Below, piece after piece: positions 13,041-51,948 of a stretch of 64,000 nucleotides of DNA. Position numbers and translations under genes: made by a program. The DNA comes from Candidatus Kaiserbacteria bacterium. Its GTDB lineage: Bacteria; Patescibacteriota; Minisyncoccia; Phycocordibacterales; UBA2100. The stretch's first letter is position 1, and every line of letters starts with the position of its first letter. Location: assembly GCA_028286585.1 (NCBI GenBank), contig JAQBRI010000008.1, forward strand, positions 18,514 through 82,513, read 5' to 3'. Under the pieces are notes generated by a model. That model did not search any database and had not been told where the DNA came from. It worked only from the letters and a program-made list of their open reading frames with translations.

Positions 13041-13402
13041 GTATGAACCAAAATATATTAAATGAACAGCAAGATATTGTGATTAAGGTGCGGACAACTC
13101 TTGTGCCGTGCGAACCCCAGTCTATGATTGGGGTCGATGAGGGTATATCGAAAAAAATATATCCAATTAATGGTTTAAGACATCCAGTGAATGGTGGTGG
13201 TTCGGGTTGGTTTATTTGGTCCAGTGTAAAAGAAATTCCTCAAGATAATCCAAATTTTTTTAAACCTACACATGCACAGCATATTTATGAATCTTACCCA
13301 TTAATTTCTAAATATCTCGGTCTTCCACCCGGATGGCGCTTTTTAATTGATGACAAGGGGTATGAGGATATTTGGTACGATGCGTCTTTGTTTGAAGTTT
13401 AA
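13037..13402 (+). CDS. putative cognate immunity protein of the Rhs toxin (hypothetical 121 aa)
   Basis: Start overlaps the rhs stop (ATGA, 13037/13040). Small cytoplasmic protein with no known domain. The position is the canonical immunity-gene slot. Confidence 0.5.
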   Translation: MSMNQNILNEQQDIVIKVRTTLVPCEPQSMIGVDEGISKKIYPINGLRHPVNGGGSGWFIWSSVKEIPQDNPNFFKPTHAQHIYESYPLISKYLGLPPGWRFLIDDKGYEDIWYDASLFEV

Positions 13403-13560
13403 CGGTCCTGTTTGGAATGATACTGTCAGGTACTATTTAAATCAAAATTTTTTGTAAAATAATCATATGTCTCGTGACCACGTTTTTCATGCAAATTAAA
13501 TCTAATATCACTTTCCCTGATTAATATGATCAAAAAAATTTCATTCAAAGCTGTAATTAT

Positions 13561-13632
13561 TGCAAATAATGGGGTCAGCCACGATTTATTAAGACATGCA
13601 AATAATGGGGTCAGCCACGATTTATTAAGACA
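13561..13632 (+). repeat. two perfect tandem 36-bp copies of a REP-like element (core AATGGGGTCAGCCACGATTTATTAAGACA)
   Basis: tgcaaataatggggtcagccacgatttattaagaca occurs at 13561-13596 and again at 13597-13632. Confidence 0.85.
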
Positions 13633-13640
13633 AAAATAAT

Positions 13641-13865
13641 ATGAATTCAATTACATTCAGTACTGAAGAATTGATAATTATTAGTGCCGCAATCAGAGAG
13701 ACCTTAGAAGAGCTTGATATCAATGAATTTCAAACTAGAACAGGATTTAATCCGGATAAGTTTGAAGAGTTATACAAAAAAATCGACGAGTGTATCCAGG
13801 GTTAAATGCAAGATGTTCTGGAATAATGCAATAAATGGGGTCAGCCACGGTTTAATTATTGAATA
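13641..13865 (+). CDS. small hypothetical ORF (74 aa) read directly from the sequence; its 3' end runs into a REP copy
   Basis: atg at 13641, in-frame stop taa at 13863-13865. Translates as MNSITFSTEELIIISAAIRETLEELDINEFQTRTGFNPDKFEELYKKIDECIQVKCKMFWNNAINGVSHGLIIE. Absent from the supplied ORF track, so treat it as tentative. The last ~13 aa are REP-encoded. Confidence 0.25.
13833..13860 (+). repeat. REP-like element, left inverted copy flanking the RAYT gene
   Basis: Sequence aatggggtcagccacggtttaattattg. It pairs with the inverted copy at 14575-14595. Confidence 0.8.
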
Positions 13866-13889
13866 ACCTAAAAATGGTATCAATAATTA

Positions 13890-14585
13890 ATGTTACAATT
13901 TCTGTATATGGCACGGGGCGCCAGAGTAGATGTTGGGGGATACATATATCACGTACTCAATCGAGCAAATGCACGATTGCAGATTTTTGATTGCCGAAAA
14001 GATTATCTTCAATTTGAGTCTATTCTCGAGGAAGCAGTTGAGAAATTTGGAATACATCTTCTCGCGTATTGCATAATGCCAAATCACTGGCATTTGGTTA
14101 TTAAAACCGTAGAAGATAGAGATTTACAGAAGTTCATGTGCTGGCTTTCAAATACGCACACGAGGCGTTTTCATGGTGCAAAGCGTACCATCGGCCACGG
14201 TCATTTGTATCAAGGGCGATATAAATCTTTTCTATGCGAAGAAGATCAGCATTTCCTTACTCTCATGCGCTATGTAGAGCGCAACGCAAAGAAGGCAAAT
14301 ATTGTTCCTCTAGCTGAAGATTGGGAATGGTCCAGTGTATGGAGGCGTGAAAGAGGAACCCAAAAGCAAAGAGCACTTCTTACACCACCTCCGGTGCCGC
14401 TCCCTACACAGTATCTTGTGTGGCTCAATGAGCCACAAACAGAATCAGAAGAAATTGCACTAGAGCATGCAATAGAAAAAAACGTACCCTTTGGTACACT
14501 GAATTGGGTCGGGACAATTATTAATACATTTGGTATGCAGCAAACACAAAGAGGAGCTGGAAGACCGAGGATTAATCGTGGCTGA
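13890..14585 (+). mobile_element. REP-associated tyrosine transposase (RAYT; IS200/IS605-like HuH Y1 transposase, COG1943-type)
   Basis: HuH motif MPNHWHLVI and catalytic region GHLYQGRYKSF (aromatic-Q-x-R-aromatic, as in WQRRFWEH of RAYTs). Flanked by inverted REP copies. The stop codon lies inside the right REP. Confidence 0.75.
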
Positions 14586-16927: not shown

Positions 16928-18001
16928 ATGTTGTGGTTTCAAAAAATGAGGCGCCGGATCATGAGTATGCTTTCCAATGATTTGGGAATTGATCTTGGTA
17001 CTGCAAATACGCTCGTGTATGTAAAAGGTAAAGGCATTGTCATCAATGAGCCATCAATCGTCGCACTGAACCAAAAAACGGGATCTTTTGTAGCTGTGGG
17101 AGCGCAGGCAAAGGATATGCTTGGCCGCACACCGGCACACATTATTGCAGTACGTCCTATTGTTGACGGAGTTATATCAGACTTTGAGGTAACGGCAGAA
17201 ATGCTTGCGTACCTTATTAACAAGGCGCAAAAAACATCACCAAAAATGTTTGGTCCTCGTGTTGTGGTTGGTGTTCCGTCTGGAATTACCTCTGTCGAAG
17301 CTCGTGCAGTGCGCGACGCAGCACGCGCAGCAGGCGCTCTCGAAGTCCACATTGTCGAAGAGCCAATGGCAGCTGCTATTGGTATCGAGTTGCCGATCCA
17401 TGATCCTTCTGGAAGTATGGTCATTGATATCGGTGGCGGTACAACTGATGTGGGTATCACGGCTTTGGGCGGTTTGGTTCGGGCACGAAATATTCGGATT
17501 GCAGGAGACAGATTTAATTCCGATATCGTGAGCCATGTGCGCAATGAATTCAAACTTCTTATTGGAGACAAAACCGCTGAAGAAACCAAGATTGCGACGG
17601 CATCTGTTATTGCTTCCAAGCTGCCAATCGAATGGAAAGTGCGCGGACGCGACTTGGTCACAGGATTGCCGCGCGAAATTATTATCACTGATCAAGATGT
17701 TCGAAACGCAATCGCGCATTCTATGGAAGAGCTTGTAGAACAAATCAGAGAAGTGCTCGAATCGGCGCCTCCTGAGATTGTTTCTGATGTGCTGCAGCGG
17801 GGAGTGTTGCTGGCCGGAGGCGGAGCACTTATTCGCGGCATGCCGGAATTTTTGTCGGATGCTTTGGGGGGACTCGAGGTACGCGTTGCTTCGGAACCTC
17901 TTACAGCTGTTGTGCGCGGTACCGCCGCTATTTTGGATGATTTGGAATTGTACGAGGATTCGTTGTTGCATGCCGACGACGAACTGGTGCCGACTGAGTA
18001 A
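16928..18001 (+). CDS. mreB: rod shape-determining protein MreB (paralog 2, first gene of mreBCD-mrdA)
   Basis: Motifs GIDLGTANTLVYV, DIGGGTTDVGI and VLLAGGGALIRGM. Confidence 0.9.
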   Translation: MLWFQKMRRRIMSMLSNDLGIDLGTANTLVYVKGKGIVINEPSIVALNQKTGSFVAVGAQAKDMLGRTPAHIIAVRPIVDGVISDFEVTAEMLAYLINKAQKTSPKMFGPRVVVGVPSGITSVEARAVRDAARAAGALEVHIVEEPMAAAIGIELPIHDPSGSMVIDIGGGTTDVGITALGGLVRARNIRIAGDRFNSDIVSHVRNEFKLLIGDKTAEETKIATASVIASKLPIEWKVRGRDLVTGLPREIIITDQDVRNAIAHSMEELVEQIREVLESAPPEIVSDVLQRGVLLAGGGALIRGMPEFLSDALGGLEVRVASEPLTAVVRGTAAILDDLELYEDSLLHADDELVPTE

Positions 18002-18003
18002 TC

Positions 18004-18795
18004 ATGAAAACACTGCATACATTTACTTCTCGACCGCAGCATTCTGGTAGTCGGGCACTGGCCATTGCTACAGTAATTGTATGCTTCCTAATAGTATGCA
18101 ATTACATAACCCACGACTTGTTGCGCTCTGAGGTGCGACAATTGCTGCTGCCGATTTCTTCTCGCGCCTCAGCTTTCACATACACGATATTTCAAGGAGA
18201 TATGTGGAGTTCGAGAGCTACGCTCCAGGCAGAAAACATCCAATTGCGGGCTCAGCTTGCGACACTGCAGGCGCACGATATTCTTTTTGAATCGTTGGTA
18301 CAAGAAAATCAACAGTATGCGCAGGCGCTGCATATTGCGAGCTCAAGCATACGGGTTGGCGCGCATATCATTTCAAGCCCATCATCATCACCATACGGCT
18401 CTATTAATATTGATACAGGTGCTTCACAAGGAGTCGAGGTAGGGGATATTGTACTTACGCCAGACTCGTTTGTTGTTGGAACAGTTTCCGAAGTAACACC
18501 CTATGCGGCAATGGTTGATTTGGCACTTGCGCCGCGTCGGATTGTCTCGGCAGTAGTTAATGGCATTCCTCTCACACTTACCGGCCGCGGCGGAAGCAAT
18601 GGTTCGGGAATTATTCCTCGCGGCTCGGTTGTTCACACGGGAGATATTGTTACGGTACCTGAATTTGGCGGACGCGCCGTAGGCGTTGTAAATTCGGTGC
18701 GCGCAGATTCGGCGAGCGCCGATAGTCTTATCTATGTCGCCGCGCCATTTAATATTTCGGCGACTATGGTTGTGGTCGTTGTACACCGCTTATAA
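18004..18795 (+). CDS. mreC: rod shape-determining protein MreC
   Basis: N-terminal TM, coiled coil (LQAENIQLRAQLATLQAHD), then a beta-rich C-terminal region. Sits immediately after mreB. Confidence 0.8.
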   Translation: MKTLHTFTSRPQHSGSRALAIATVIVCFLIVCNYITHDLLRSEVRQLLLPISSRASAFTYTIFQGDMWSSRATLQAENIQLRAQLATLQAHDILFESLVQENQQYAQALHIASSSIRVGAHIISSPSSSPYGSINIDTGASQGVEVGDIVLTPDSFVVGTVSEVTPYAAMVDLALAPRRIVSAVVNGIPLTLTGRGGSNGSGIIPRGSVVHTGDIVTVPEFGGRAVGVVNSVRADSASADSLIYVAAPFNISATMVVVVVHRL

Positions 18796-19135: not shown

Positions 19136-20875
19136 ATGATGAAGCGATATAGTGCAGTCCATGAACTACAACCCGAGGATATTCTTCTCGACTCATCAAA
19201 CTTACCATTTCGCGATACTACGCATTTTGAAGGAAGGGTTGCAGGCCCTGTCTCACGGCGAGCGCTTGGAGGAGTTGGTATTGTTTTTTTGTTGATTCTC
19301 ATCGCTTTTGGGAGTCGCGCATACTATTTGCAAGTCATGGAGGGCAACGCATACAGCGTGCTCTCGATTAATAATACGCTTCACAAATCGGTTGTATTTG
19401 CGCTTAGAGGCACCATAACAGACCGTACGGGCCGCGAACTTGCGTGGAATACCTGGGAGTTGTCCTCGAGTACCGAAAGCACCTCAACGCCCTCGGCGAT
19501 TGCGACAACTTCAATGTTTGCTCTTCGGCAATACACCTCATTACCAGGACTCGCGCACGTCTTGGGTTATTTGCGATATCCTCAAAAGGACAACTCTGGT
19601 AAATGGTGGCAGCCAAACTACATTGGTATTGCCGGCGTCGAAAATTCGCTGGACTCGCTTTTGCAGGGTACAAACGGGAGCAGTATTTCTGAGACCGATG
19701 CTCATGGTCACTCGATACGAAACAATATCATTCAGCCGCCGATTGACGGACAGAACATAACCCTTTCGATCGACGCCTCGATTCAAAGCAAACTCAATCA
19801 AGTACTCGAGGCGCATGCTTCACAAAACGGCTTTCAGGGCGGTGCTGCTGTCATTATGGATGTGCGAACGGGACAGATTATCGCTCTTACCAGTTTTCCG
19901 GAATATGATAATCAGGCATACGTTGATGGCAATAATGCGGTAATTGCAGAGACATCCAAGAATGTCCACTTTCCACTGCTTGACCGCGCAATCGCGGGTT
20001 TGTATGCGCCCGGTTCAATCGTAAAACCGATATTTGCCGCAGCAGCACTTAAGGAAAATATAATTAGTCCTGACAAGCAAATTGATTCGATTGGCGCGAT
20101 TACCTTGCCCAATCCCTACAGCCCGGCAAATCCGAGTATATTCAGAGACTGGGCGGTACACGGGTGGATTGATATGCGCACAGCACTTGCCGTGTCGTCA
20201 GACGAATATTTTTATACTATTGGAGGCGGATATGGTGGTCAGCAAGGGTTGGGAATTGCCCGTATCGACAAATATGCGGCATTGTTTGGTCTTGCATCCA
20301 AAACCGGTATTAACCTCCCTAACGAACAGGTAGGAGTCATTCCGTCGCCCGACTGGAAGGCTGTCTCGTTTGCCGGAAACGAACCATGGCGTATTGGAGA
20401 CACCTACCACACGGCTATTGGTCAGTATGGTTTTCAAATTACTCCGGTTCAGGCGGTGCGATTTATTGCAGCAATTGCAAACGGGGGCAACCTTCTTACA
20501 CCTCAAATACTTGCAAGTTCAACTCCTGTGTCAGTTTCGCTTGGTATTCCCGATAGCATGCTTCAGATTGTGCGCGAAGGAATGCATATGGCGGTAACAT
20601 CGACCCGACCCGATGCAACGGTCAAAGTCCTAAACATTCCTGGATTTTCACTTGCTGCAAAAACAGGCACCGCCCAAATTGGGGCACACAATGAATGGAT
20701 GAACTCATGGTCGGTGGGCTTTTGGCCGGTGGATCATCCGCGCTACGCATACGCCGTCGTGTTGGAAAGAGCGCCTGCCCACACTGCCTCTGGTGCCGCT
20801 CCTGGCATGTACCCCTTCTTTCAGTGGCTTATAGCGACCCACCCGGAATATATCGGTGACGCAACAAATAATTAG
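19136..20875 (+). CDS. mrdA: penicillin-binding protein 2 (elongasome transpeptidase)
   Basis: Transpeptidase motifs GSIVKP (SxxK), SSDEYF (SxN) and KTGTAQ (KTG). N-terminal TM anchor. Confidence 0.85.
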   Translation: MMKRYSAVHELQPEDILLDSSNLPFRDTTHFEGRVAGPVSRRALGGVGIVFLLILIAFGSRAYYLQVMEGNAYSVLSINNTLHKSVVFALRGTITDRTGRELAWNTWELSSSTESTSTPSAIATTSMFALRQYTSLPGLAHVLGYLRYPQKDNSGKWWQPNYIGIAGVENSLDSLLQGTNGSSISETDAHGHSIRNNIIQPPIDGQNITLSIDASIQSKLNQVLEAHASQNGFQGGAAVIMDVRTGQIIALTSFPEYDNQAYVDGNNAVIAETSKNVHFPLLDRAIAGLYAPGSIVKPIFAAAALKENIISPDKQIDSIGAITLPNPYSPANPSIFRDWAVHGWIDMRTALAVSSDEYFYTIGGGYGGQQGLGIARIDKYAALFGLASKTGINLPNEQVGVIPSPDWKAVSFAGNEPWRIGDTYHTAIGQYGFQITPVQAVRFIAAIANGGNLLTPQILASSTPVSVSLGIPDSMLQIVREGMHMAVTSTRPDATVKVLNIPGFSLAAKTGTAQIGAHNEWMNSWSVGFWPVDHPRYAYAVVLERAPAHTASGAAPGMYPFFQWLIATHPEYIGDATNN

Positions 20876-21879: not shown

Positions 21880-22293
21880 TTATTTTTTTAGAAGAGGAAC
21901 AGCAAATCCGCACATGATAAATGTGCAGAGTGCAGACAATGCGCAATATTGGCAAAGTGCATGAATGACAAAATATTGTAACGATTCAAATCCAATCGAC
22001 ATGATCGCGCCAGCGATGGAAAGTACAACTAATCCCATTACGAGTCTTTTTGAAACGATAGGCGTGGTGAGTATATATAATCCCAAAAATCCAACGAGCA
22101 AATAATACACTACTCCAAAAGCGCCCAATGGAATCGGGCCGACCATAGAATACTTGCTATGAAGAACGGTCTCGCATCCGTGTAGTATCGAGCAGGGAAG
22201 CGGAAGCGAGATATAGTGATCAAGCGTTAGATAGAACGAATCAGCAAATCCAACGAGTGAGGCAAGTATGATAACGATCAAACTTCTTTGCAT
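21880..22293 (-). CDS. VKOR-like (vitamin K epoxide reductase family) membrane protein, DsbB functional analog
   Basis: 137 aa, 4 TM. Loop Cys pair (LPCSILHGCE) and a CxxC in the last TM (CQYCALSALC). Adjacent to a DsbA-like gene. Confidence 0.55.
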   Translation of the reverse strand: MQRSLIVIILASLVGFADSFYLTLDHYISLPLPCSILHGCETVLHSKYSMVGPIPLGAFGVVYYLLVGFLGLYILTTPIVSKRLVMGLVVLSIAGAIMSIGFESLQYFVIHALCQYCALSALCTFIMCGFAVPLLKK

Positions 22294-22295
22294 GG

Positions 22296-22985
22296 TTATT
22301 GTTTTGGCGCGCTAGTCGCTGCGGCAAGCGCTGCATCAATGAGCTTACTAAATGCGTCGGCGGAAGCTGGATTGTCTATTTCGACTCCATTGATAAAGAA
22401 TGTAGGAGTGTGATCAATGTTGATCGATTCACCTTGGCTGAGCTGTGATTGAACATTTGCGACAATCGATTGTGAGACAACATCGGTATTAAATTTTGCG
22501 ACATCAAGTCCGATTGATTGCGCATACGTATCAAACTTATCTTTAACTACCGTATCAGTAGAAACGGTACTCCAGGCATCTTGATTGCTATAAAGTGCGT
22601 CATGCATTGCCCAGAACTTTCCTTGTAATGATGCTGCTTCTGAGGCCTGTGCACTGATTATTGCGTTTGGGTGGATTTGGTAGAGCGGAAACTGGCGAAA
22701 TACAAAAGCTACACGATCGCCGTACGTTTGAGTAAGTTTTTGCATAATAGGTTCATACGCTCCGCATGCAGGACATTCAAAATCGCCATATTCAATAACG
22801 CTCACACTTGAGCTCGCGTTGCCACGCACGTGATCACTACTCGATACAGGAGTCGTCTGAATGGAGGTTTTTCCAGTAATCGGTTTTGCAGAACCTGACA
22901 TTGCCGCCAGCACTACTGTGATACCAATAATTAATACGATAAATGCAGCACCAATAAAAAGTTGAGTTCGTTGTTTTGTTTCCAT
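22296..22985 (-). CDS. DsbA-like thiol:disulfide oxidoreductase (membrane-anchored thioredoxin fold)
   Basis: FECPACGAY (CxxC) within a thioredoxin fold, N-terminal TM. Start taken at METKQ (22985); the track's start is 23057. Confidence 0.7.
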   Translation of the reverse strand: METKQRTQLFIGAAFIVLIIGITVVLAAMSGSAKPITGKTSIQTTPVSSSDHVRGNASSSVSVIEYGDFECPACGAYEPIMQKLTQTYGDRVAFVFRQFPLYQIHPNAIISAQASEAASLQGKFWAMHDALYSNQDAWSTVSTDTVVKDKFDTYAQSIGLDVAKFNTDVVSQSIVANVQSQLSQGESINIDHTPTFFINGVEIDNPASADAFSKLIDAALAAATSAPKQ

Positions 22986-23059
22986 AGCCTGATTATACGT
23001 GACTTTATGCTCTGCCTCAACCGATAAGGTTTTGCCCTCTCGCGATGAGAGAGACACGA

Positions 23060-30138: not shown

Positions 30139-30768
30139 TTATAGATTGGTATATCGGGACATTGCAGGAAGTGTTTGGATTGAATCTAATGGATAGAGTC
30201 GAAAGAGAACGCGCCCAACGATGTCGGAGCGGGGTAATATGCCCCACATGCGTGAATCCGCAGATACTTTTCTATTATCCCCAAGGACAAAGTATTCATC
30301 TTTTTTGAGCGTGTATTGCGCGTTTGAAGTTCCTCCAAAGTCACTTGGACTTATGTACGGCTCAGAAAGAACTACGCCATCTGGATGCGCTGCGTTAATA
30401 ATAGTTACTTTTGGCTCTGTGTCGGAGAGTGAAACGGTGTCTCCGGGCAACCCAATGACACGTTTGATAAGGGCACGATCGTTCATTTGAGGTAAATTAA
30501 AAACGATAACGTCGCCACGCTGCGGCTCAGAAAACCGATACGTGAGACGATCGACTATGAGGTAATTATAATCGTGAAAATTTGGTTCCATTGAAGGACC
30601 TGAAACAATATATGGTGCGGCAATAAATAATCTAATAATAAGCGCTACTAATCCGGCGACGACAAAGGAAGTGATGAGGGATGCATCGAGAAAATTATTT
30701 TTGCGAGGAGTAGAAACTGCAGGAATTGCATTGAGTGATGAATCTTTTTGCATCACTGGATCTGACAT
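30139..30768 (-). CDS. lepB: signal peptidase I
   Basis: N-terminal TM. SGPSMEP (Ser box), RGDVIVF, and GDNRKVSADSR (Lys box region). Confidence 0.85.
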   Translation of the reverse strand: MSDPVMQKDSSLNAIPAVSTPRKNNFLDASLITSFVVAGLVALIIRLFIAAPYIVSGPSMEPNFHDYNYLIVDRLTYRFSEPQRGDVIVFNLPQMNDRALIKRVIGLPGDTVSLSDTEPKVTIINAAHPDGVVLSEPYISPSDFGGTSNAQYTLKKDEYFVLGDNRKVSADSRMWGILPRSDIVGRVLFRLYPLDSIQTLPAMSRYTNL

Positions 30769-36890: not shown

Positions 36891-37439
36891 GTGTCAATGC
36901 AGACAACTGATTTTGTAAACCCACGCGACGTTGTACAACATCTCAAGTTAGTGCCCGATATGCGCGTCGTTGATATGGGGGCGGGAAGTGGAGCTTATAC
37001 CTTTGCCTGCGCTGAAGTAGTGGGCGAAAAAGGAAGAGTCTATGCTTTTGATGTTCAAAAGGATTTACTGACCCGAATAACCAATGAGGCGCGCAAAAAA
37101 AATCTCCAAAATGTCGATACGATCTGGGCTGACATTGAACAACTTGGCAGTACACGTTTTTCTGACAATATCATCGACGTGGTTATTATTTCAAATATTC
37201 TCTTTCAGTTGCCCGACAAAAATTCTCCTCTCAAGGAAGCCTGTCGCATAATAAAACCAGACGGACGAGTCGTTGTTATTGACTGGTCAGAATCATTTGG
37301 GGGCATGGGGCCACACACAGACGACGTTGTTACTGCAGAAGCTGCTTTAGAGCTGATAAGGGCAAACGGGCTAGAATGTACGCAAACGTTTGTGCCGGGA
37401 GCACATCATTACGGTTATATTTGCCGCAAAAAAATATGA
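36891..37439 (+). CDS. class I SAM-dependent methyltransferase
   Basis: Motif I VVDMGAGSGAYT, plus acidic residue D of AFDVQ (motif II). Confidence 0.7.
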   Translation: MSMQTTDFVNPRDVVQHLKLVPDMRVVDMGAGSGAYTFACAEVVGEKGRVYAFDVQKDLLTRITNEARKKNLQNVDTIWADIEQLGSTRFSDNIIDVVIISNILFQLPDKNSPLKEACRIIKPDGRVVVIDWSESFGGMGPHTDDVVTAEAALELIRANGLECTQTFVPGAHHYGYICRKKI

Positions 37440-38818
37440 AAACGACGCCATTTCAAATCATCCTTCTTTCGGTCTTTGGGGCAAGCGCCATAGTTGGCGT
37501 TCTTGTCTTTGCGATTCTTACCAGTACTGGTACACAATCAACTATCGGGCCCGTGGTTATTTGGGGCACGTTTGATAGTAAAAGTATTACCCAAATTATC
37601 CAAGATTCTTCGAACGGAGACGCAAACCTTGCATTGGTCACCTATGTGCAAAAAGATCCGGCAACTTATGAAGCAGATCTAACCCGCGCGCTTGCAAGCG
37701 GCACCGGCCCGGATCTCTTTATTATGAGTCAGGATCAAGCTATACAAGATGCGAGTGAGGTGTCGCTTATACCGTATGCCGAAATAAGTCAGTCTCAATA
37801 TCAAAAACTATTTATAAGTGCAACTTCACCATTTTTGCTGCAAGACGGCATTGTTGCACTCCCATTCATTGCAGATCCAATGGTGTTATTTTGGAATAAA
37901 GATTTGCTGGGAACTGCAGGTTTGACCGAGCCACCCGAATATTGGTCACAACTGTTTACTACTCCGATGCAATCGCTTACAGTCAAAGATGATGCCGGCT
38001 CGATTACACAAAGCCTGATTGCCTTGGGCGAGTATGGCAACATCGATCATGCCAAAGATATTGTGGCGACACTTATCATGCAGGTCGGTGGCGCTATTAC
38101 CACTCGTGATCCAGCGACTGGTGATTTGACTGGTTCATTGGGTAAAGCAGACTCCTCGGGTTCTCTGCAGGGCACTCCGGCCGAGTCGGCGTTGCGTTTT
38201 TATACTGAATTTGCAGACCCTTCAAAAGATTACTATTCGTGGAACCGTGCGCAGCAGCTTGCATCGATGGCGTTTGCTCAAGGTAATTCAGCGCTCTATC
38301 TGGGCTATGCGAGTGAGCAATCAGTTATCGAAAAACTCAATCCAAATTTAAAATTTGCCATTTCCCGCATTCCACAAAGTGGTACGACCCAAGGTCCTGT
38401 TACCACTGCACGCATCTATGCAATAGCTATCGCAAGAAATTCCCGTAACTTGGTTGGTGCAAAGACGATTGCATATACCTTGGTTTCGGCTCCCTTTTCA
38501 AACGCAATAGCAAATAGTTATGGCATGGTATCACCGCGCCGAGATGTGCTTACGCCAGGCGCCATAAAGGCTGCGCCTACCAGCGTTGATGCCAAGGTTA
38601 ACGCAGCGCGCGCACTCGCGTTTGCAAGCTCGACCCCTGATCAGGATGTAATTACACAGTCAGCAATTATTGCACAGGGGTGGAGCGACCCCGATCCAGT
38701 CAAGACGGATGATATATTTCGCGCTATGATAGAAGACACGACCAGTGGCGCCATGCTGTTTACAGAGGCTATCGGTCGTGCCAATTCCCAATTACTTGCT
38801 ATTATTGCTGGAAACTAA
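37436..38818 (+). CDS. membrane-anchored extracellular solute-binding protein family 1-like protein
   Basis: N-terminal TM. GTGPDLFI and PFIADPMVLFWNKDLLGTAGLTEPPEYWSQL resemble the SBP_bac_1 pattern (aPDvf; lPf..d..vlyYNKDlf). No ABC permease or ATPase nearby. Confidence 0.55.
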   Translation: MKTTPFQIILLSVFGASAIVGVLVFAILTSTGTQSTIGPVVIWGTFDSKSITQIIQDSSNGDANLALVTYVQKDPATYEADLTRALASGTGPDLFIMSQDQAIQDASEVSLIPYAEISQSQYQKLFISATSPFLLQDGIVALPFIADPMVLFWNKDLLGTAGLTEPPEYWSQLFTTPMQSLTVKDDAGSITQSLIALGEYGNIDHAKDIVATLIMQVGGAITTRDPATGDLTGSLGKADSSGSLQGTPAESALRFYTEFADPSKDYYSWNRAQQLASMAFAQGNSALYLGYASEQSVIEKLNPNLKFAISRIPQSGTTQGPVTTARIYAIAIARNSRNLVGAKTIAYTLVSAPFSNAIANSYGMVSPRRDVLTPGAIKAAPTSVDAKVNAARALAFASSTPDQDVITQSAIIAQGWSDPDPVKTDDIFRAMIEDTTSGAMLFTEAIGRANSQLLAIIAGN

Positions 38819-38826
38819 CACTAACT

Positions 38827-39195
38827 ATGATGACATACCTTAGACCGATGCGAGTAATTCTGTACTATGTTCCTGTACTCATTTTGTTTTTTATTGCAGC
38901 ACACGGCGTGCATGCAGAAACGACAGCCGGTAATCTTACCAATCCAATCAAGGTCACTTCTGTTTCCGATTTTCTTAAATCAATTTTTACTGTCATCACA
39001 CGGCTTGGTGTCATTGTAATAAGTGTTGCTATTGTATTTGTTGGATTTAAATTTATCGTGGCGCAGGGTAATCCAGAGGCACTCAAATCTGCTCGACGAA
39101 ACGCACTCTATGTATTCATTGGTGCGGCGATTGTCTTGGGTGCCGAGGTTATAACCGCAGTTCTGAGTGACACTGCCAATAAACTTTTGAGTTAA
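38827..39195 (+). CDS. TrbC/VirB2-like (T4SS-pilin-like) small secreted two-TM protein, paralog 1
   Basis: Signal peptide (cleavage after VHA), then two hydrophobic helices flanking FKFIVAQGNPEALKSARRNALYVFIGAAIVL (G-[DN]-P...K.......IG..I motif). Confidence 0.5.
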   Translation: MMTYLRPMRVILYYVPVLILFFIAAHGVHAETTAGNLTNPIKVTSVSDFLKSIFTVITRLGVIVISVAIVFVGFKFIVAQGNPEALKSARRNALYVFIGAAIVLGAEVITAVLSDTANKLLS

Positions 39196-39197
39196 AT

Positions 39198-39572
39198 ATG
39201 TACAACGCTGTTCAATCAATGATACAGATGCTGGTTCCACATATGGCATATGCTCAAAACGTGAGCGGCGGCGCTGCAACCACGTTTGCTTCACTTGCAA
39301 AAACAGTTGTCGGCCTTTTGAATACTGGTAGCGTTTTGCTAATTAGCGCCGTCTTGGTTTTGTATATGCTTGGCGGATTTATGCAGGTGTACGGAATTAG
39401 CCAAGGCAAGGTAAAAGGTTCAAGTATGACAAGCTATTTTGCATGGGGCATCGGTATACTTTTTGTAATGGTATCCATTTGGGGAATCGTACAATTCTTT
39501 CAATATACGCTTTTCAATGGCCCGTCTCCCAACTCATCCGACGGCGTAACGCCATATAGTCGCTCACTATGA
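39198..39572 (+). CDS. TrbC/VirB2-like small secreted two-TM protein, paralog 2
   Basis: Signal peptide (after AYA), two TM helices, central MQVYGISQGKVKGSSMTSYFAWGIGILFVMV. Confidence 0.45.
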   Translation: MYNAVQSMIQMLVPHMAYAQNVSGGAATTFASLAKTVVGLLNTGSVLLISAVLVLYMLGGFMQVYGISQGKVKGSSMTSYFAWGIGILFVMVSIWGIVQFFQYTLFNGPSPNSSDGVTPYSRSL

Positions 39573-39853
39573 ACAAGAGGCAGATTATCGGTCTGGTTGG
39601 ACTCACATTTCTTCCCTCGATCGCGCTTGCACAAACGGTCGCAGTATTTGCAGGGCTCGTAAATATTTGTATCGGAGTATTTTTTACCATATCGTTTGTA
39701 ATGTTTACAGGCGGAACTTTGGAATACTTGTTCCATCTGGGTATGCCTCACCGCGAACATGGTCTCGAAAAGATGCACTGGGGAGTTGTCATACTGGTTG
39801 TGGTACTTTTTTTGGTAGGAATTTCGCGTTTTTTGCAGCATTTTTTTGTCTAA
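39569..39853 (+). CDS. TrbC/VirB2-like small secreted two-TM protein, paralog 3
   Basis: Signal peptide (after ALA), two TM helices. Start overlaps the previous stop (ATGA). Confidence 0.4.
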   Translation: MNKRQIIGLVGLTFLPSIALAQTVAVFAGLVNICIGVFFTISFVMFTGGTLEYLFHLGMPHREHGLEKMHWGVVILVVVLFLVGISRFLQHFFV

Positions 39854-39939
39854 GATGTTGTCCACAGGCGTCAAATCTGCCTCTTGCAGAAGGGTAGACC
39901 CGGTATACAATGATGGGACTTACTATTAAATAGACATCT

Positions 39940-40320
39940 ATGCGCAGATACATCAGTTCAGTTGCTTTAAGTTCCGCAGTCGTTTTACTTCCTCTTGTCA
40001 CTTTTGCTCAAAACGTTACAGCAGCAAATCCTCAACAAGGTTTGTTTGGATTGGTAGGATTTTTTAACAGTCTTTTGAATGCGATAATCGTACTTCTTAT
40101 TACCGCAGCCGTTGTAGCCATCTTTTACTGGGGTGTTCGCTTGCTCATGGCAAGTGGTGATGCAGAAAGTCGAAAAGCAGCTCTTGAAGGCATGATGTAC
40201 GGTGTTATAGCACTTGCAGTAATGGTTTCTATTTGGGGATTGGTCAAATTCTTGCAATCGACACTCGGAATCAGTAATAGTACTGCAGCACAGGCACCTT
40301 CGGTCCTCAACATTAAATAG
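39940..40320 (+). CDS. TrbC/VirB2-like small secreted two-TM protein, paralog 4
   Basis: Signal peptide (after TFA), two TM helices flanking VRLLMASGDAESRKAALEGMMYGVIALAVMV. Confidence 0.5.
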   Translation: MRRYISSVALSSAVVLLPLVTFAQNVTAANPQQGLFGLVGFFNSLLNAIIVLLITAAVVAIFYWGVRLLMASGDAESRKAALEGMMYGVIALAVMVSIWGLVKFLQSTLGISNSTAAQAPSVLNIK

Positions 40321-40339
40321 ACAGGTACACTCTTGAGCT

Positions 40340-40624
40340 ATGGACGTTATAGACACATTGCTCTACAAAATATCCACCATTATTATCTATCCGATAATGG
40401 TGGTTGTTTTTGCGGCAGGATTTTTTATGTTTATGTTTGGATTATTTAAGTTTATGCTCAATCTGAGTCAGGGAAGCAAATCAGCTGACGATGGCAAGCA
40501 GCATATGCTGTGGGGTACCGTTGGTATGGTTATTATGGTTTCGGGATATGGCATTGTTCAGCTTATAGACAATACCGTGCATTCAACAGGTACCGGTGTA
40601 TCACAGAGTATCAATAATCCTTAG
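40340..40624 (+). CDS. TrbC/VirB2-like small two-TM protein, paralog 5 (no cleavable signal peptide evident)
   Basis: Two TM helices flanking FKFMLNLSQGSKSADDGKQHMLWGTVGMVIMV. Confidence 0.4.
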   Translation: MDVIDTLLYKISTIIIYPIMVVVFAAGFFMFMFGLFKFMLNLSQGSKSADDGKQHMLWGTVGMVIMVSGYGIVQLIDNTVHSTGTGVSQSINNP

Positions 40625-40686
40625 TGTGCTGGAAGAGAGACTTGGTCACGAATATTTTTTGTGCCGTCGCACAAAAAATTTCTCGA

Positions 40687-40733
40687 CCCCAGCTCGCGGT
40701 CTCGTCTGCTGACTCGACATCGCTCCGCTTTTC
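40687..40733 (-). repeat. 45-nt tRNA-trailer-associated element, copy a (downstream of tRNA-Leu-TAG)
   Basis: Plus strand ccccagctcgcggtctcgtctgctgactcgacatcgctccgcttttc. Identical to the copies at 44392-44438 and 58585-58631 (one mismatch in the latter). Flanked by two hairpins. Confidence 0.85.
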
Positions 40734-40797
40734 AAGCCTCTCGCGTACCGTGCCCGAGCACGGTACTTTCCTGCCCAGTACTCACTTCGTTCGTCTG

Positions 40798-40879
40798 TGC
40801 TGGAAGAGAGACTTGAACTCTCATGGGTTGCCCCACATGCTCCTAAGGCATGCGCGTATACCAATTCCGCCATTCCAGC
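40798..40879 (-). tRNA. tRNA-Leu (anticodon TAG)
   Basis: Acceptor GCTGGAA/TTCCAGC, TGGCGGAATTGGTA D-arm, anticodon loop CTTAGGA, long variable arm, GAGAG-TTCAAGT-CTCTC T-arm, discriminator A. Confidence 0.8.
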
Positions 40880-41045
40880 ATTCACGAGTATTGTACACCA
40901 AGTATCGCACTATCAAAATTTATACACAGGCCAGTACTGGCAAATTGCCTAGGATGTGCGATATACTGTATAGGTTACTCGTTATCACAGAGATTCTATG
41001 TTATACGGCAAGCACTAAGCCACCTGAACCCCACCCGGGGTTCTT

Positions 41046-42278
41046 TTGGTGTGTTATAGAGGTATACTATTCTGTATGACACATGGGAAACCTAGGTTAA
41101 CAGTCTGTGAAGCCTGCGGTATTTCTCCGGTTAATCACTCCAAGCAATATATAAGTAGCGGTGCAGACAGTCTGACGTCTTCGGCTCTGTATTTTACTTA
41201 TCAAGTTAAGCCGCTGCAAAAAATTCTTTCACTCAACGAATCACTCAAGCGTCTTTGTGTGAGGACAGTGTTTGCGGTTGCCATATGGTTGGGAGTTATC
41301 AAACTTGATTCAAATATACCGACGCTTGATTCCACTCGCACTAAAGTTGTTATCGACGAAGCAAAAAAGCTTGGCATATCAGTCGAGCAGATGATTTTTG
41401 ACGGACGACGTACCGACAGATTTCGCGCGCTTGTACAAGGCAAACATATTTATTTTGAAAGCTTACCAATTCCAGATGGGCGAGGAAGTCTCGCGTACTT
41501 GTGGATGGATGATAAGTATTTGCTTAAGAAGTTTTTTGTACGACATTCCATACCGGTGCCGTTTGTACAAAGTCATACCTCATTACAGGATATTAAGAAT
41601 TTTTTTGATAACCCTACCGTACCACGTACCGTGATCGTCAAACCACGTTTTGGTTCTCTCGATCGACACACAACCACACGTATTAGTACCCAAAATGAAC
41701 TTGAGAGGGCATTTGTAAGTGCACAGCTCATATGTCCGCAAGTGTGTATAGAAGAGCATCTTGAAGGCGGTGTTAGTCGCGCGACGTGCATAGACGGAAA
41801 GCTTGAAGGATTTTTTACTGCAGATGCTCCGTATGTCATGGGTGATGGAATACGTTCGATCGAAGAGTTGATCAGAGAGATAAATATTTCAAAACCAGAT
41901 CGTCTTGGAGACGTTATTGTTTCTTCAGAAATTATTGGATACCTTTCGCGCACAAACTTTACTATTAATTCTGTTCCCAAAGCAGGACAACGTGTTCAGT
42001 TGTCGCACTATGCAGGCAGACAATTTGGGGGCTATACGCGGGAAATATTGCCAACAGTACATCCTGACCTTCGTGCACAGATAGAGCGTGCTGCATGCGT
42101 TTTGGGGGTATCAGTAGTGGGATTTGATCTCATTATTCCTGATCCAGAACAGGATCCAGCACAGCAAAAATGGGGAATAATAGAAGCAAATAGTTTGCCG
42201 TTTATTGATTTGCATTACTATGCGCTCGTAGGTCATTCAAACCCCGCAAAGGCGTTGTGGGAGTTGTGGTTGAGATAG
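41046..42278 (+). CDS. ATP-grasp ligase resembling the N-terminal ATP-grasp module of cyanophycin synthetase / RimK
   Basis: RTVIVKPRFGS...VMGDGIRSIEELIREINISKPDRLGDVIV...QLSHYAGRQFGGYTREILPTVHPD...VVGFDLIIPD...WGIIEANSLPFI. No Mur-ligase domain. Start uncertain. Confidence 0.55.
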   Translation: MVCYRGILFCMTHGKPRLTVCEACGISPVNHSKQYISSGADSLTSSALYFTYQVKPLQKILSLNESLKRLCVRTVFAVAIWLGVIKLDSNIPTLDSTRTKVVIDEAKKLGISVEQMIFDGRRTDRFRALVQGKHIYFESLPIPDGRGSLAYLWMDDKYLLKKFFVRHSIPVPFVQSHTSLQDIKNFFDNPTVPRTVIVKPRFGSLDRHTTTRISTQNELERAFVSAQLICPQVCIEEHLEGGVSRATCIDGKLEGFFTADAPYVMGDGIRSIEELIREINISKPDRLGDVIVSSEIIGYLSRTNFTINSVPKAGQRVQLSHYAGRQFGGYTREILPTVHPDLRAQIERAACVLGVSVVGFDLIIPDPEQDPAQQKWGIIEANSLPFIDLHYYALVGHSNPAKALWELWLR

Positions 42279-42587: not shown

Positions 42588-44123
42588 TCAAATAGAAAAC
42601 AGGCCAAGGGTATTGTGTTTATATTTCCATATCGAAAGGGTTGTATACATTTTTTGAAATAGTGAAAGGGAGGCCGTGTCTCGATACACGTTTACGAGAA
42701 TCATGCCGGAGTCATTAAGGTTTTTCTTGAGAGATATCACAAAATCCTCTTTATTTAAAAGAGGTGATGCTCCTGTATCCGTAAAAATATCGACGACGAT
42801 TAAGTCATACGTTTCTTGTAGTTTTGCCATTATCTCGGCAGCGTCGCCTTCGATGATCGTGGGCTCCTTATATGGCTTAAACATTTGCATAGTCCGAGTA
42901 AGCGCAATCATGGCAGGATCAATTTCTATTGCGGTAATTGTGCATTCTGGCAGTTGTTTATAAAACTCAATCACAGCGCCTCCGGTGCCCAGGCCAAGCA
43001 TTAATACTTTTGCCTGCGTTCTCGGAATACGACCATACTTTTTGATGTGTTTGAGTGCTTTTTTCCACATTGTATTGATATATTGCGAAGTCTGATACAC
43101 GTCTCCGGTTCGCACACGCACATCGCTTCCTACCCGATCTACATAAATAGTAGAATGAACCGAGGATGCAATTGCCCGTTCGGGCGAATGGTAATCCTTG
43201 TTCAGTGGATTGTTCATGTACAAATACTGAACAAAATCCTCAATGCGCTTAATAACTCCAACAGCGGCAAAATGGTACGCAATAGGAGAGGAAATAAAAT
43301 AGTGAGTACCAAATTTGGATTTGAATTCCGAAAATCCTTTCCATGACGCAGGGTCACCCTTTTTCCAAAAGACGCCAAAATCAATATACCTGCATCCTCG
43401 TGCCTGTGAGTGCATAAACCAATAATCAAACATGCCAACCATTAGTGGGACTTTTGATGACTCTGTCGCATAAAAGCCGTTCAAATAATACGTCGATTTG
43501 CACGACTCCGAATACTCGACAGCCATACCCGCAACATATATATTTGTCGACACATCACGAATACCCCATAGATATACAGGCGTAGTTGCTGCCTCGAGTC
43601 GTTTGCGGACTTCTTCGAGTAAAAATGCTCCCACGTGCTTTCCAACATGACTCTGCATATAGGAGTGCTTAAATTGCTCGTAGTTAATAGGCTCAATAAT
43701 ATGCGTTTTGCCCAAGTGGCTGCGCAGCCACTTTGTACGATATTCCTGAGATCGGCGACTCCATGCTTTGTAATAGGGAACAGAATCTTCTATGAGCGCA
43801 TAGCCACCCTTGTAGTCGGGATCAGGCTTTAAGATAAACCAACCCTTTGGCAATGGCCGAGAAGTATCAAACATTCGCCACATAATCACTCTGTTATGCG
43901 GTTTGCCCTCCGTATTTGAGATATCCAAATCAGGCGGAGTACTGCCTGCATAAATTTCTACATAGAAAGGCCAGAAACCATATCGCGTTCCACGTGGATT
44001 CGTACCGATGTTCTCAGGATTCATCCACGATGGAATATTATTTTTTACATTATATTCGGGCCATGCACTGCGCGGAGTGAATGCCGGCATTTTTTCTGAT
44101 GGAACTTTTTCGCTATGACTCAT
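42588..44123 (-). CDS. fusion protein: N-terminal ~330-aa domain of uncertain family (possibly FemAB/GNAT-like acyltransferase) plus C-terminal spermidine-synthase-like (PABS) Rossmann domain
   Basis: C-terminus VLMLGLGTGGAVIEF...ITAIEIDPAMI...DLIVVDIFTD matches the PABS pattern (VLiiGgGdGg...DviivDssdp). N-terminal family not assignable by eye. Start at MSHSEK (44123) abuts the tRNA 3' end; MPAFTPR (44090) is an alternative. The track ORF to 44213 reads through the tRNA. Confidence 0.5.
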   Translation of the reverse strand: MSHSEKVPSEKMPAFTPRSAWPEYNVKNNIPSWMNPENIGTNPRGTRYGFWPFYVEIYAGSTPPDLDISNTEGKPHNRVIMWRMFDTSRPLPKGWFILKPDPDYKGGYALIEDSVPYYKAWSRRSQEYRTKWLRSHLGKTHIIEPINYEQFKHSYMQSHVGKHVGAFLLEEVRKRLEAATTPVYLWGIRDVSTNIYVAGMAVEYSESCKSTYYLNGFYATESSKVPLMVGMFDYWFMHSQARGCRYIDFGVFWKKGDPASWKGFSEFKSKFGTHYFISSPIAYHFAAVGVIKRIEDFVQYLYMNNPLNKDYHSPERAIASSVHSTIYVDRVGSDVRVRTGDVYQTSQYINTMWKKALKHIKKYGRIPRTQAKVLMLGLGTGGAVIEFYKQLPECTITAIEIDPAMIALTRTMQMFKPYKEPTIIEGDAAEIMAKLQETYDLIVVDIFTDTGASPLLNKEDFVISLKKNLNDSGMILVNVYRDTASLSLFQKMYTTLSIWKYKHNTLGLFSI

Positions 44124-44124
44124 G

Positions 44125-44211
44125 TGCCGGGAGTGGGACTCGAACCCACACGCCCATGTTACTGTGCAAGAGATTTTAAGTCTCTGGTGTCTACCATTCC
44201 ACCATCCCGGC
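44125..44211 (-). tRNA. tRNA-Leu (anticodon TAA)
   Basis: GCCGGGA-TG-GTGGAATGGTAGACAC..anticodon loop CTTAAAA..long variable arm..GGTTCGAGTCC..TCCCGGC-A. Confidence 0.8.
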
Positions 44212-44284
44212 ATACATCTCTTTTTGGATCGAGATAGGGTACATAATACGATACTTTATGCTAAAATACACGAGCATTCATACC

Positions 44285-51513: not shown

Positions 51514-51948
51514 TTGATATGGTACACTAATCGCATGCGAAAATATCTTGTCCTGGGTCTTACTACGGGTATTATGCTTCTTCCACTTATTAGTAATGCT
51601 GCAATTTGGCATTCAATTGTTCCTGGCACTGATCAGGGTTCTAGCTGCGGCAAAGTTGGCGGATGTCAGTCTATATGTGATATAGCGCTCCTTGTTCAAA
51701 ATATTCTCAATGACGCTATAGTGCTTGCTACGTTTATGGCAGGTATTCTCTTTGCGTGGGCTGGCGGCCGAATGCTTATGGCAGGAGGTGATCCAAAGGC
51801 CATAACTAGTGCAAAAAAGACCTTTAGCGCGGTACTAATTGGATTTATCATCATACTCTCGGCTTGGCTCATTGTGGACACTATAATGAAGGTATTTACC
51901 GACCAATCGAGTTCTGGCTTTGGGCCTTGGAATCAAATTTGCCAATAG
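51514..51948 (+). CDS. TrbC/VirB2-like small secreted two-TM protein, dispersed sixth paralog
   Basis: Signal peptide (after NAA). GRMLMAGGDPKAITSAKKTFSAVLIGFIIIL has the same motif as the 38.8-40.6 kb array. Confidence 0.5.
   Translation: MIWYTNRMRKYLVLGLTTGIMLLPLISNAAIWHSIVPGTDQGSSCGKVGGCQSICDIALLVQNILNDAIVLATFMAGILFAWAGGRMLMAGGDPKAITSAKKTFSAVLIGFIIILSAWLIVDTIMKVFTDQSSSGFGPWNQICQ

Follow-up and report, generated by a model that had tools for sequence, protein, structure and literature searches.

The 64,000-nt stretch of DNA analysed here (the window) is part of the ordinary chromosome of a Candidatus Kaiserbacteria metagenome-assembled genome (MAG; class Paceibacteria). It carries five tandem genes, here named c1 to c5, and a solitary sixth copy, c6, which an earlier note had read as paralogous TrbC/VirB2-like pilins of the kind found in type IV secretion systems (T4SSs). 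All six genes (locus tags JWO50_541-545 and JWO50_555) are annotated as ‘hypothetical protein’. We found that the array forms a conserved, transcription-unit-like block together with a methyltransferase gene and a solute-binding protein (SBP) gene, with a hairpin downstream in the window, and that this block is separate from T4SS core genes.

Organization of the block

The array is preceded on the plus strand by a gene for a class I S-adenosylmethionine-dependent methyltransferase of ∼180 amino acids (aa) (36897-37439; Pfam Methyltransf_31, 85.7 bits) and by a gene for a 460-aa family-1, MalE-like SBP with an N-terminal transmembrane anchor (37436-38818; SBP_bac_8 66.8 bits, SBP_bac_1 58.3 bits). 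The profile of this SBP matched maltose-, maltodextrin- and other sugar-binding proteins in the PDB, and no ABC (ATP-binding cassette) permease or ATPase was seen near the SBP gene in the annotated or scanned neighbourhoods. The methyltransferase stop codon overlaps the SBP start codon (ATGA, −4 nt), the SBP gene ends 8 nt before c1, and the spacings inside the array are 2 nt (c1-c2), −4 nt (c2-c3), 86 nt (c3-c4) and 19 nt (c4-c5). A hairpin with an 11-bp core stem and A/T tracts on either side (40651-40681, plus strand) lies 27 nt past the c5 stop codon, and ViennaRNA gave −25 kcal/mol for the 76 nt that follow c5 (40625-40700). The unit probably begins with the methyltransferase gene, and the hairpin is its probable terminator, even if the consensus terminator scan did not flag it; scans of the window for sigma-70 promoters and consensus terminators gave the same counts as shuffled sequence.

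Two further observations concern the end of the block. An exact 20-nt direct repeat, TGTGCTGGAAGAGAGACTTG, occurs at 40625-40644, where it starts right after the c5 stop codon, and at 40796-40815, where it forms the 3′ end of a tRNA-Leu gene (minus strand, 40797-40879); the pair looks like an att-type scar of integration or excision at a tRNA. The same tRNA-Leu gene is overlapped by a 151-aa open reading frame (ORF) at 40624-41079, which is almost certainly spurious.

The six pilin-like genes

The five plus-strand ORFs of 122, 124, 94, 126 and 94 aa were found exactly where the earlier note had placed them. c1 (38827-39195; NCBI start 38848) is a canonical, TrbC-like copy with the loop AQGNPEALKSARR and a conserved N-P-[LI] motif near the mature N-terminus, P40 being invariant in the c1-type alignment. 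c2 (39198-39572; NCBI start 39228) is a diverged copy of a W-G...V-M-V-S-I-W-G type, and c3 (39569-39853), with its His-rich loop HLGMPHREHGLEKMH, is the most diverged one. c4 (39940-40320) is a helical hairpin and the hub of the paralogues, and c5 (40340-40624), the last gene of the array, is a leaderless two-helix copy with the motif G-K-Q-H-M-L-W-G. The sixth copy is likewise present on the plus strand at 51514-51948: a TTG codon opens the ORF at 51514, and the NCBI start at 51535 yields 137 aa. c6 is canonical and rich in cysteines, with three of them ahead of helix 1 and a fourth at the C-terminus.

Hydropathy showed two long hydrophobic segments flanking a short polar loop in all six copies, as the earlier note had described, and a single-chain AlphaFold2 model of c4 consisted of a leader helix followed by a hairpin (H34-70/H75-109) with a predicted local distance difference test score of 78-90. 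The statement that each copy bears a signal peptide with an A-x-A cleavage site ahead of these segments had to be narrowed. Clear leaders with predicted cleavage sites are present in c1 (VHA↓E), c3 (ALA↓Q), c4 (TFA↓Q) and c6 (SNA↓A). c5 has none, since it begins in the first helix, and its orthologues are likewise leaderless. c2 is marginal, its leader being a short uncharged stub (..MLVPHMAYA↓QNV); the c2 orthologue of a more distant relative (locus L002) has a full leader. Similarly, c1, c4 and c6 conform to the proposed G-[DN]-P loop motif, which describes c2, c3 and c5 only loosely.

Remnants of a cleavage motif without a hydrophobic core were also observed at the extreme N-terminus of c2 (39198-39260, ..HMAYA↓QN) and of array members in loci L061 (13183-13230, MPDFIIQKAYA↓QG) and L077 (12157-12180, MINIAYA↓AK). 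These leaderless and stub copies suggest that an ancestral signal peptide has decayed repeatedly, or that a short propeptide is removed in another way.

Family membership of the copies

We compared the copies with the Pfam families PF18895 (T4SS_pilin; gathering cut-off 26.6 bits) and PF04956 (TrbC/VirB2; 27.9 bits) and with NCBIfam NF045849 (cut-off 40 bits). Three copies exceeded the PF18895 cut-off (c1 34.3, c4 36.3 and c6 36.4 bits). c5 scored 20.7 bits, below the cut-off, and its orthologues at the same array position scored above it (37.6 and 33.5 bits). PF04956 recognized c1 (33.4 bits) above its cut-off, as it did the c1-type orthologue in L061 (34.4 bits); c6 reached 10.9 bits and the other copies gave no match. 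c2 and c3 matched nothing in Pfam. In the arrays of L077 and L061, all ten proteins, leaderless type included, exceeded the PF18895 cut-off. The family check proposed in the earlier note came out positive for c1, c4 and c6.

For the remaining copies we used hhalign to align copy groups with 18 distant PF18895 proteins, none of them from the window. The c5 group gave 96.8%, while the c2 group (85%, E 6e-6) and the c3 group (65%, E 6e-5) stayed below the usual 90-95% confidence; all three alignments kept register between the cleavage site and helix 2. Within the array, pairwise identity ranged from 12 to 32%, the highest value being that of c2 and c4 (over 96 aa, z 7.9). Each of the 15 copy pairs was also scored against 500 shuffles that preserved the local hydrophobic layout. 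Nine of the 15 pairs outscored every shuffle, which indicates that the similarity of the copies goes beyond hydrophobic composition. c4 was related to each other copy with z-scores of 6.3-8.4, and c3 to c4, c5 and c2 with z-scores of 7.6, 5.7 and 5.1; the pairs c1-c2, c1-c3 and c3-c6 were not individually significant in this test. Taken together, sequence comparison places the copies, c2 and c3 with less certainty than the others, among the TrbC/VirB2-superfamily, PF18895-type pilin-like proteins, and to that extent the pilin reading of the earlier note was upheld. The copies are also related to the Mbov_0395 family of pilin-like proteins (NF045849) without being members of it, with 37.1 bits for c4 and 17-19 bits for c1, c5 and c6, all under the cut-off.

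Other identities were considered and rejected. A type IV pilin or pseudopilin was not indicated, as there was no N_methyl or pilin Pfam match at E ≤ 10 and the copies have A-x-A leaders and two helices. For c5, a VirB3 or PrgI identity found no PF05101 or PF12666 match at E ≤ 10, and the JGI automatic name ‘ABC-type maltose transport system permease subunit’ had no Pfam support.

A c5-type profile matched 6,351 representative clusters at E ≤ 1e-3, most of them proteins of 85-120 aa matched from about residue 1. Several proteins of 200-370 aa (P0167, P0170, P0173, P0176 and others) contained two or three consecutive matches. Neighbouring hairpin genes thus appear to be fused in some genomes, which is either an artefact of gene calling or, in the Rosetta-stone sense, evidence that the hairpins assemble side by side. 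The earlier note had named fusion of homologues to unrelated enzymatic domains as an outcome that would speak against pilins. No such fusion was seen; the homologues showed these hairpin repeats and N-terminal extensions (described below), the latter not having been scanned against domain libraries.

Conservation and selection

The layout of GyrA, methyltransferase, SBP and five small genes of the same sizes is shared by two relatives, whose c4 orthologues are 95% (L004) and 66% identical to that of the window. Comparison with the closer relative gave dN/dS (ratio of nonsynonymous to synonymous substitution rates) values of 0.04-0.07 for c2-c5 (0.047 for c2 and 0.042 for c3), a mark of strong purifying selection, to be read with the caveat that dS was saturated for most genes and not computable for c1. 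Most replacements fall within the leaders and leave the mature parts almost unchanged. Retention of the same gene order in relatives, with orthologues present in three related lineages, together with these ratios for c2-c5, indicates that c1-c5 are real genes.

As an observation of its own, dS between the window (39940-40624) and L004 (11116-11799) was 0.46 for c4 and 0.73 for c5, against 1.6-2.6 in the flanking genes. Lineages may recently have recombined in the 3′ half of the array, or codons or RNA may be under strong constraint.

Species-representative genomes were scanned from the SBP side, which returned at least 496 relatives; a scan of the same kind of genomes with c4 alone found no relative, so that the species of the window is not represented among them. 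The best 80 SBP loci all came from Paceibacteria-type MAGs, and eight of them were inspected individually (L016, L037, L041, L057, L061, L072, L077 and L090). In seven of the eight, a pilin-like array begins a few to ∼50 nt past the SBP stop codon; the exception is L090, where FtsH follows the SBP. The succession of SBP and array also occurs in L002 and L004-L009, and it is kept in distant members despite differing upstream context. Of the 80 loci, 29 contain a back-translated S-I-W-G-I motif. It shares the strand of the SBP gene in every case and, with few exceptions, lies no more than ∼3.5 kb downstream of that gene; by our estimate, ∼1.6 matches on either strand would be expected by chance. 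On the upstream side, a Methyltransf_31/UbiE-like gene of ∼175-180 aa directly precedes the SBP gene in the window, L002, L004, L007, L041 (9325-9849), L061 (9434-9967) and L077 (9473-9991). In L077 other genes stand between GyrA and the methyltransferase, and the methyltransferase-SBP adjacency is still kept.

Paralogue types are conserved as well. By best-hit analysis the order in L016 is c1-c2-c3-c4-c5, and in distant genomes a Cys-rich c6-type gene is followed by a c1-type gene, by mostly c4-type genes and finally by a leaderless c5-type gene, which is next to last in L041. The same types in the same order were found in genomes whose SBP is only 33-45% identical. Orthologues of the c1 type are present in L016, L037, L057, L061 and L077, and those of c3 in L002, L004 and L016. 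A c6-type copy stands directly after the SBP in L007, L041, L057, L061 and L077. Because c6-type copies lead arrays elsewhere, c6 is a displaced array member, the orthologue of the first array gene of other Paceibacteria, moved by ∼11 kb in the window; its solitary position after ClpB is shared with a close relative. Four ancient types can thus be distinguished across Paceibacteria: the Cys-rich c6 type, the TrbC-like c1 type, the W-G/S-I-W-G type of c2, c3 and c4, and the leaderless c5 type.

The earlier note had taken the strong divergence between copies as a sign of diversifying selection. This was contradicted by the low dN/dS values and by the positional orthologues across distant Paceibacteria; on these two grounds the divergence would reflect old functional specialization and no ongoing variation.

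Some array members carry long N-terminal extensions (411, 315, 269 and 193 aa) before a C-terminal pilin hairpin (L072 11311-14288, L009 9161-9970 and L061 12127-12708). Such extensions would be extracellular and displayed on whatever structure the hairpins build.

Position relative to T4SS genes

No VirB4, VirB6 or VirD4/T4SS ATPase gene was found in the window, which reaches 38 kb upstream and 23 kb downstream of the array. The absence of VirB4 and VirD4 follows from the Pfam assignments, as all window ORFs of at least 380 aa carry a non-T4SS assignment, with the exception of a 410-aa ORF (41046-42278) without a Pfam match; this confirmed what the earlier note had reported. Likewise, no T4SS ATPase or VirB6 was found within 10 kb on either side of the arrays in L002, L004, L007, L009, L057, L061 and L077, and the 10 kb past TopA in the closest relative hold housekeeping genes and a recombinase and no T4SS.

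The suggestion that the machinery lies elsewhere gained support at the level of the lineage. The genomes behind L077, L012, L014, L027 and L041 are listed as VirB4-positive (Table S1 of PMC12102498). For the array-bearing relative RAAC4_OD1_1, the one genome for which Table S3 of the same study was cross-checked, the rows consulted place VirB6, VirB3, TrsD, VirB4 and VirB2 at coding sequences (CDSs) 531-537 (PMC12102498). That VirB4 cluster is ∼240 CDSs away from the SBP-linked array of the same genome, which lies near 298-300 kb and encodes five proteins with PF18895 scores of 31-41 bits. The SBP-linked array has no row in the part of Table S3 consulted for this genome (PMC12102498); possibly its genes were not annotated as CDSs or were removed by a filter.

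Other features of the window

Apart from the block, the window has seven tRNA genes and the gene content expected of a chromosome: MreB, RseP, ProS, PBP2, FtsA/FtsZ, TrxB, DsbA/VKOR, HisS, LepB, Pth, S1, GyrA, IF-2, IscS-like, ClpB, RNR, MiaA, ParB, RelA and TopA. Two MreB-like genes (315-1397, confirmed by Pfam, and 16928-18001, judged from the N-terminal sequence only), MreC (18004-18795) and PBP2 (19136-20875) fall in one 20-kb stretch. A 2,871-aa RHS/SpvB/FG-GAP/Gly_rich_2 protein resembling polymorphic toxins (4425-13040) overlaps the next gene, an Imm33-like immunity gene (13037-13402), by 4 nt. Downstream of the pair lies an IS200-type Y1 transposase gene (13890-14585). GC content falls to 0.38-0.41 across 4425-14585, a sign that this ultrasmall genome may have acquired an island for a contact-dependent toxin. 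Finally, a 541-aa spermine-synthase-like ORF (42588-44213) overlaps a tRNA-Leu gene (44124-44211); translation probably begins downstream of the tRNA gene, as it does in the L002 relative, whose protein has 479 aa.

Comparison with known systems

VirB2-like pilin arrays in Patescibacteria have already been published, and c1-c6 are one more case. Quinonero-Coronel et al. (2025) used PF04956 and PF18895 to search 3,035 genomes of Patescibacteria; in 383 assemblies they reported 441 VirB2 arrays, which had 2-11 genes and a mean identity of ∼25%; a pilin gene was near virB4 in 1,135 of 1,948 assemblies, low mutual identity was also noted for the VirB2 paralogues of Bartonella and Anaplasma, and versatility in host range was proposed as the role of the arrays (PMC12102498). 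Under the array definition of that study (at least two pilin-family genes of low identity, in tandem or with one non-pilin gene between them), the five contiguous genes of the window form an array, and its hidden Markov model (HMM) criteria would call c1, c4 and c5 and miss c2 and c3. Our array resembles the published ones in PF18895 membership (some of those also matching PF04956), tandem same-strand arrangement, identity and copy number, in being chromosomal with no relaxase nearby, and in its ultrasmall, probably epibiotic monoderm host. It differs in its surroundings. In Southlakia epibionticum, where Wang et al. (2023) found the six-pilin series inside the T4SS cluster to be essential (PMC10633639), and in many Microgenomatia and Saccharimonadia, the array is inside the virB4 locus, whereas any T4SS ATPase is at least 23-38 kb away from the array described here, which belongs to a conserved unit that also includes a methyltransferase and an orphan MalE-like SBP. 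Moreover, the copies here are ancient, ordered and under purifying selection, in contrast to the host-range variation proposed before.

The conserved combination of methyltransferase, MalE-like SBP and ordered pilin set is new here, in that we did not find it in the searchable literature. An SBP is mentioned neither in PMC12102498 nor in PMC10633639, and full-text searches returned no further paper that dealt with PF18895-type pilins or with a pilin-SBP link in the candidate phyla radiation. A 2025 review regards the T4SSs of Patescibacteria as the only monoderm T4SSs with potential pili (PMC12857230).

With the VirB2, TrbC and TraA pilins of diderm conjugation systems, the copies share a mature size of ∼70-100 aa, a long cleaved leader, two helices and a short basic loop, and c1 is above the PF04956 cut-off. 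Unlike those pilins, they have no adjacent VirB3, VirB4, VirB5 or VirB6, a monoderm host, six distinct copies in place of one major pilin, no tblastn-level similarity to plasmids and no sequence-level match to solved pilins. Mbov_0395 of a mycoplasma integrative and conjugative element is also a small two-helix pilin-like protein in a monoderm or wall-less, MPF-FATA-type context; it is a single gene in a transfer module, in contrast to the chromosomal array beside an SBP described here. Type IV pilins and pseudopilins have a class III leader (G↓F..E) and a single N-terminal helix. Fixed, diverged and individually conserved paralogues in one operon recall the major and minor pilin sets of type IV pili and type II secretion systems, as a functional analogy only, since the copies here have A-x-A leaders and a two-helix hairpin and no PilB, PilC or PilD is nearby.

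A model for the array and its alternatives

The reading that we favour, with moderate confidence, is that c1-c6 are a fixed set of VirB2/TrbC-superfamily subunits which a VirB4-type T4SS, encoded elsewhere on the chromosome, would extract and assemble into a heteromeric surface fibre or conduit. By analogy with VirB2, TrbC and TraA, the leader-bearing copies would be inserted by Sec and cut after A-x-A by signal peptidase I, while c5 would insert through its first helix. The likely enzyme is LepB (30139-30768, minus strand; Peptidase_S26, 150 bits), the one S26 peptidase of the window. In the membrane, every copy would take the form known from VirB2 and TrbC, an N-out/C-out hairpin whose basic loop faces the cytoplasm. 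Because the set of types is fixed and ancient, we infer a structure with specialized subunits, like major and minor pilins, in which the types would take distinct roles (bulk, base, tip or adaptor) and not be interchangeable. The four cysteines of c6, together with VKOR and a DsbA-like thioredoxin encoded at 21880-23057 (minus strand; VKOR 81.1 bits, Thioredoxin_4/DSBA 94.2/41.3 bits), suggest extracellular tails that may be stapled by disulfides. The membrane-anchored SBP, which in this model is co-transcribed, could supply recognition of a ligand or host glycan for an epibiotic organism; the roles of SBP and methyltransferase are speculation.

Several points weigh against this model. Formation of a pilus by c1-c6 is itself an inference, as is the whole part given to the SBP, and we know of no organism in which a pilus of PF18895 proteins has been seen. 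c2 and c3 lack the support of a curated HMM. VirB4 was not located in this MAG, where exact-match look-ups reached only 6-kb Logan contigs of the same sample, and in none of the inspected loci does the array adjoin VirB4; at the loci examined, the copies were not encoded with VirB4, VirB3 or VirB6, as would be expected of a functional T4SS pilin. Comparisons with solved structures and with plasmids gave nothing specific: the whole-family and c1-type profiles found only a designed protein among PDB sequences (E 0.1-0.4), Foldseek with the monomer model gave no specific match (every E-value >1), and tblastn with c1 and c4 found no match in 72,556 plasmids. Moreover, the rows of Table S3 consulted for RAAC4_OD1_1 include a VirB2 gene next to VirB4 (PMC12102498), so that in at least one relative the SBP-linked set need not be the pilin of the T4SS. 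The sole functional evidence is essentiality in Saccharimonadia, another class, where the array is inside the T4SS locus (PMC10633639).

Some of these points would suit the main alternative, a self-contained, T4SS-independent heteromeric membrane complex of methyltransferase, SBP and array, for instance one for binding-protein-dependent uptake or anchoring with the hairpins as stoichiometric membrane subunits, which we consider unlikely. Every array inspected accompanies an orphan SBP and none accompanies VirB4, the neighbourhoods annotated or scanned contain no ABC permease or ATPase, RAAC4_OD1_1 has its separate VirB2, natural fusions of two or three hairpins exist, and a subunit set that is fixed, ordered and under strong purifying selection is what a defined complex would show. 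Yet the fusions may be artefacts of gene calling, linkage to an SBP gene is not physical or functional coupling, and two-helix hairpins whose helices contain few polar residues make unlikely transporters; the arrays inside T4SS loci of other Patescibacteria classes also come from the Pfam family of the copies described here (PMC12102498). Low identity between copies, comparable to that of other Patescibacteria arrays and of the Bartonella and Anaplasma paralogues, is what one would expect if the array consisted of variants of a single pilin that can replace one another, maintained by diversifying selection for antigenic or host-range variation, as the host-range hypothesis of PMC12102498 would have it. 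This is very improbable here, given the dN/dS of orthologues, the clustering of substitutions in leaders with nearly invariant mature parts, the preserved order of types even where SBPs have diverged widely, the one consistently leaderless type, and the lack of repeats, invertible segments or silent cassettes among the features seen. Least credible is the notion that the likeness to pilins is one of composition only and that the genes are unrelated ones for small hydrophobic membrane proteins (holin-like, bacteriocin-immunity-like or spurious ORFs). Weak sub-threshold matches of some homologues to membrane families, including a holin family and an energy-coupling-factor S-component, and automatic names such as the JGI one mentioned above point that way; PF18895 and TrbC matches at curated thresholds, similarity beyond layout-preserving shuffles, a loop motif conserved in register, kept synteny and purifying selection largely refute it.

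Implications

Patescibacteria comprise maybe a quarter of bacterial diversity and seemingly live off host cells. Essentiality of such a system has been shown only for their T4SS with its unusual pilin arrays, in one cultured species. The locus described here adds little to the bare existence of arrays, and the comparison with relatives sharpens the question of what they are for. That the Paceibacteria copies are ancient, ordered and non-redundant argues for a heteromeric structure as opposed to antigenic variation. In Paceibacteria the arrays are inherited together with a sugar-binding protein and a methyltransferase, and not with VirB4. In addition, published array counts may be underestimates, because standard HMMs miss about one third of the copies here. 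If the coupling to the SBP is functional, it would offer a concrete and testable handle on what the apparatus recognizes. A bolder proposal, which we regard as doubtful, is that the methyltransferase, the orphan MalE-like SBP and the ordered four-type pilin set belong to one envelope apparatus that Paceibacteria inherit vertically and that is distinct from the pilin beside VirB4, for example an SBP-coupled heteromeric fibre or conduit that captures or imports host carbohydrate. If true, this would be a new combination of an SBP with VirB2-like subunits and would tie the enigmatic T4SS of Patescibacteria to nutrient acquisition.

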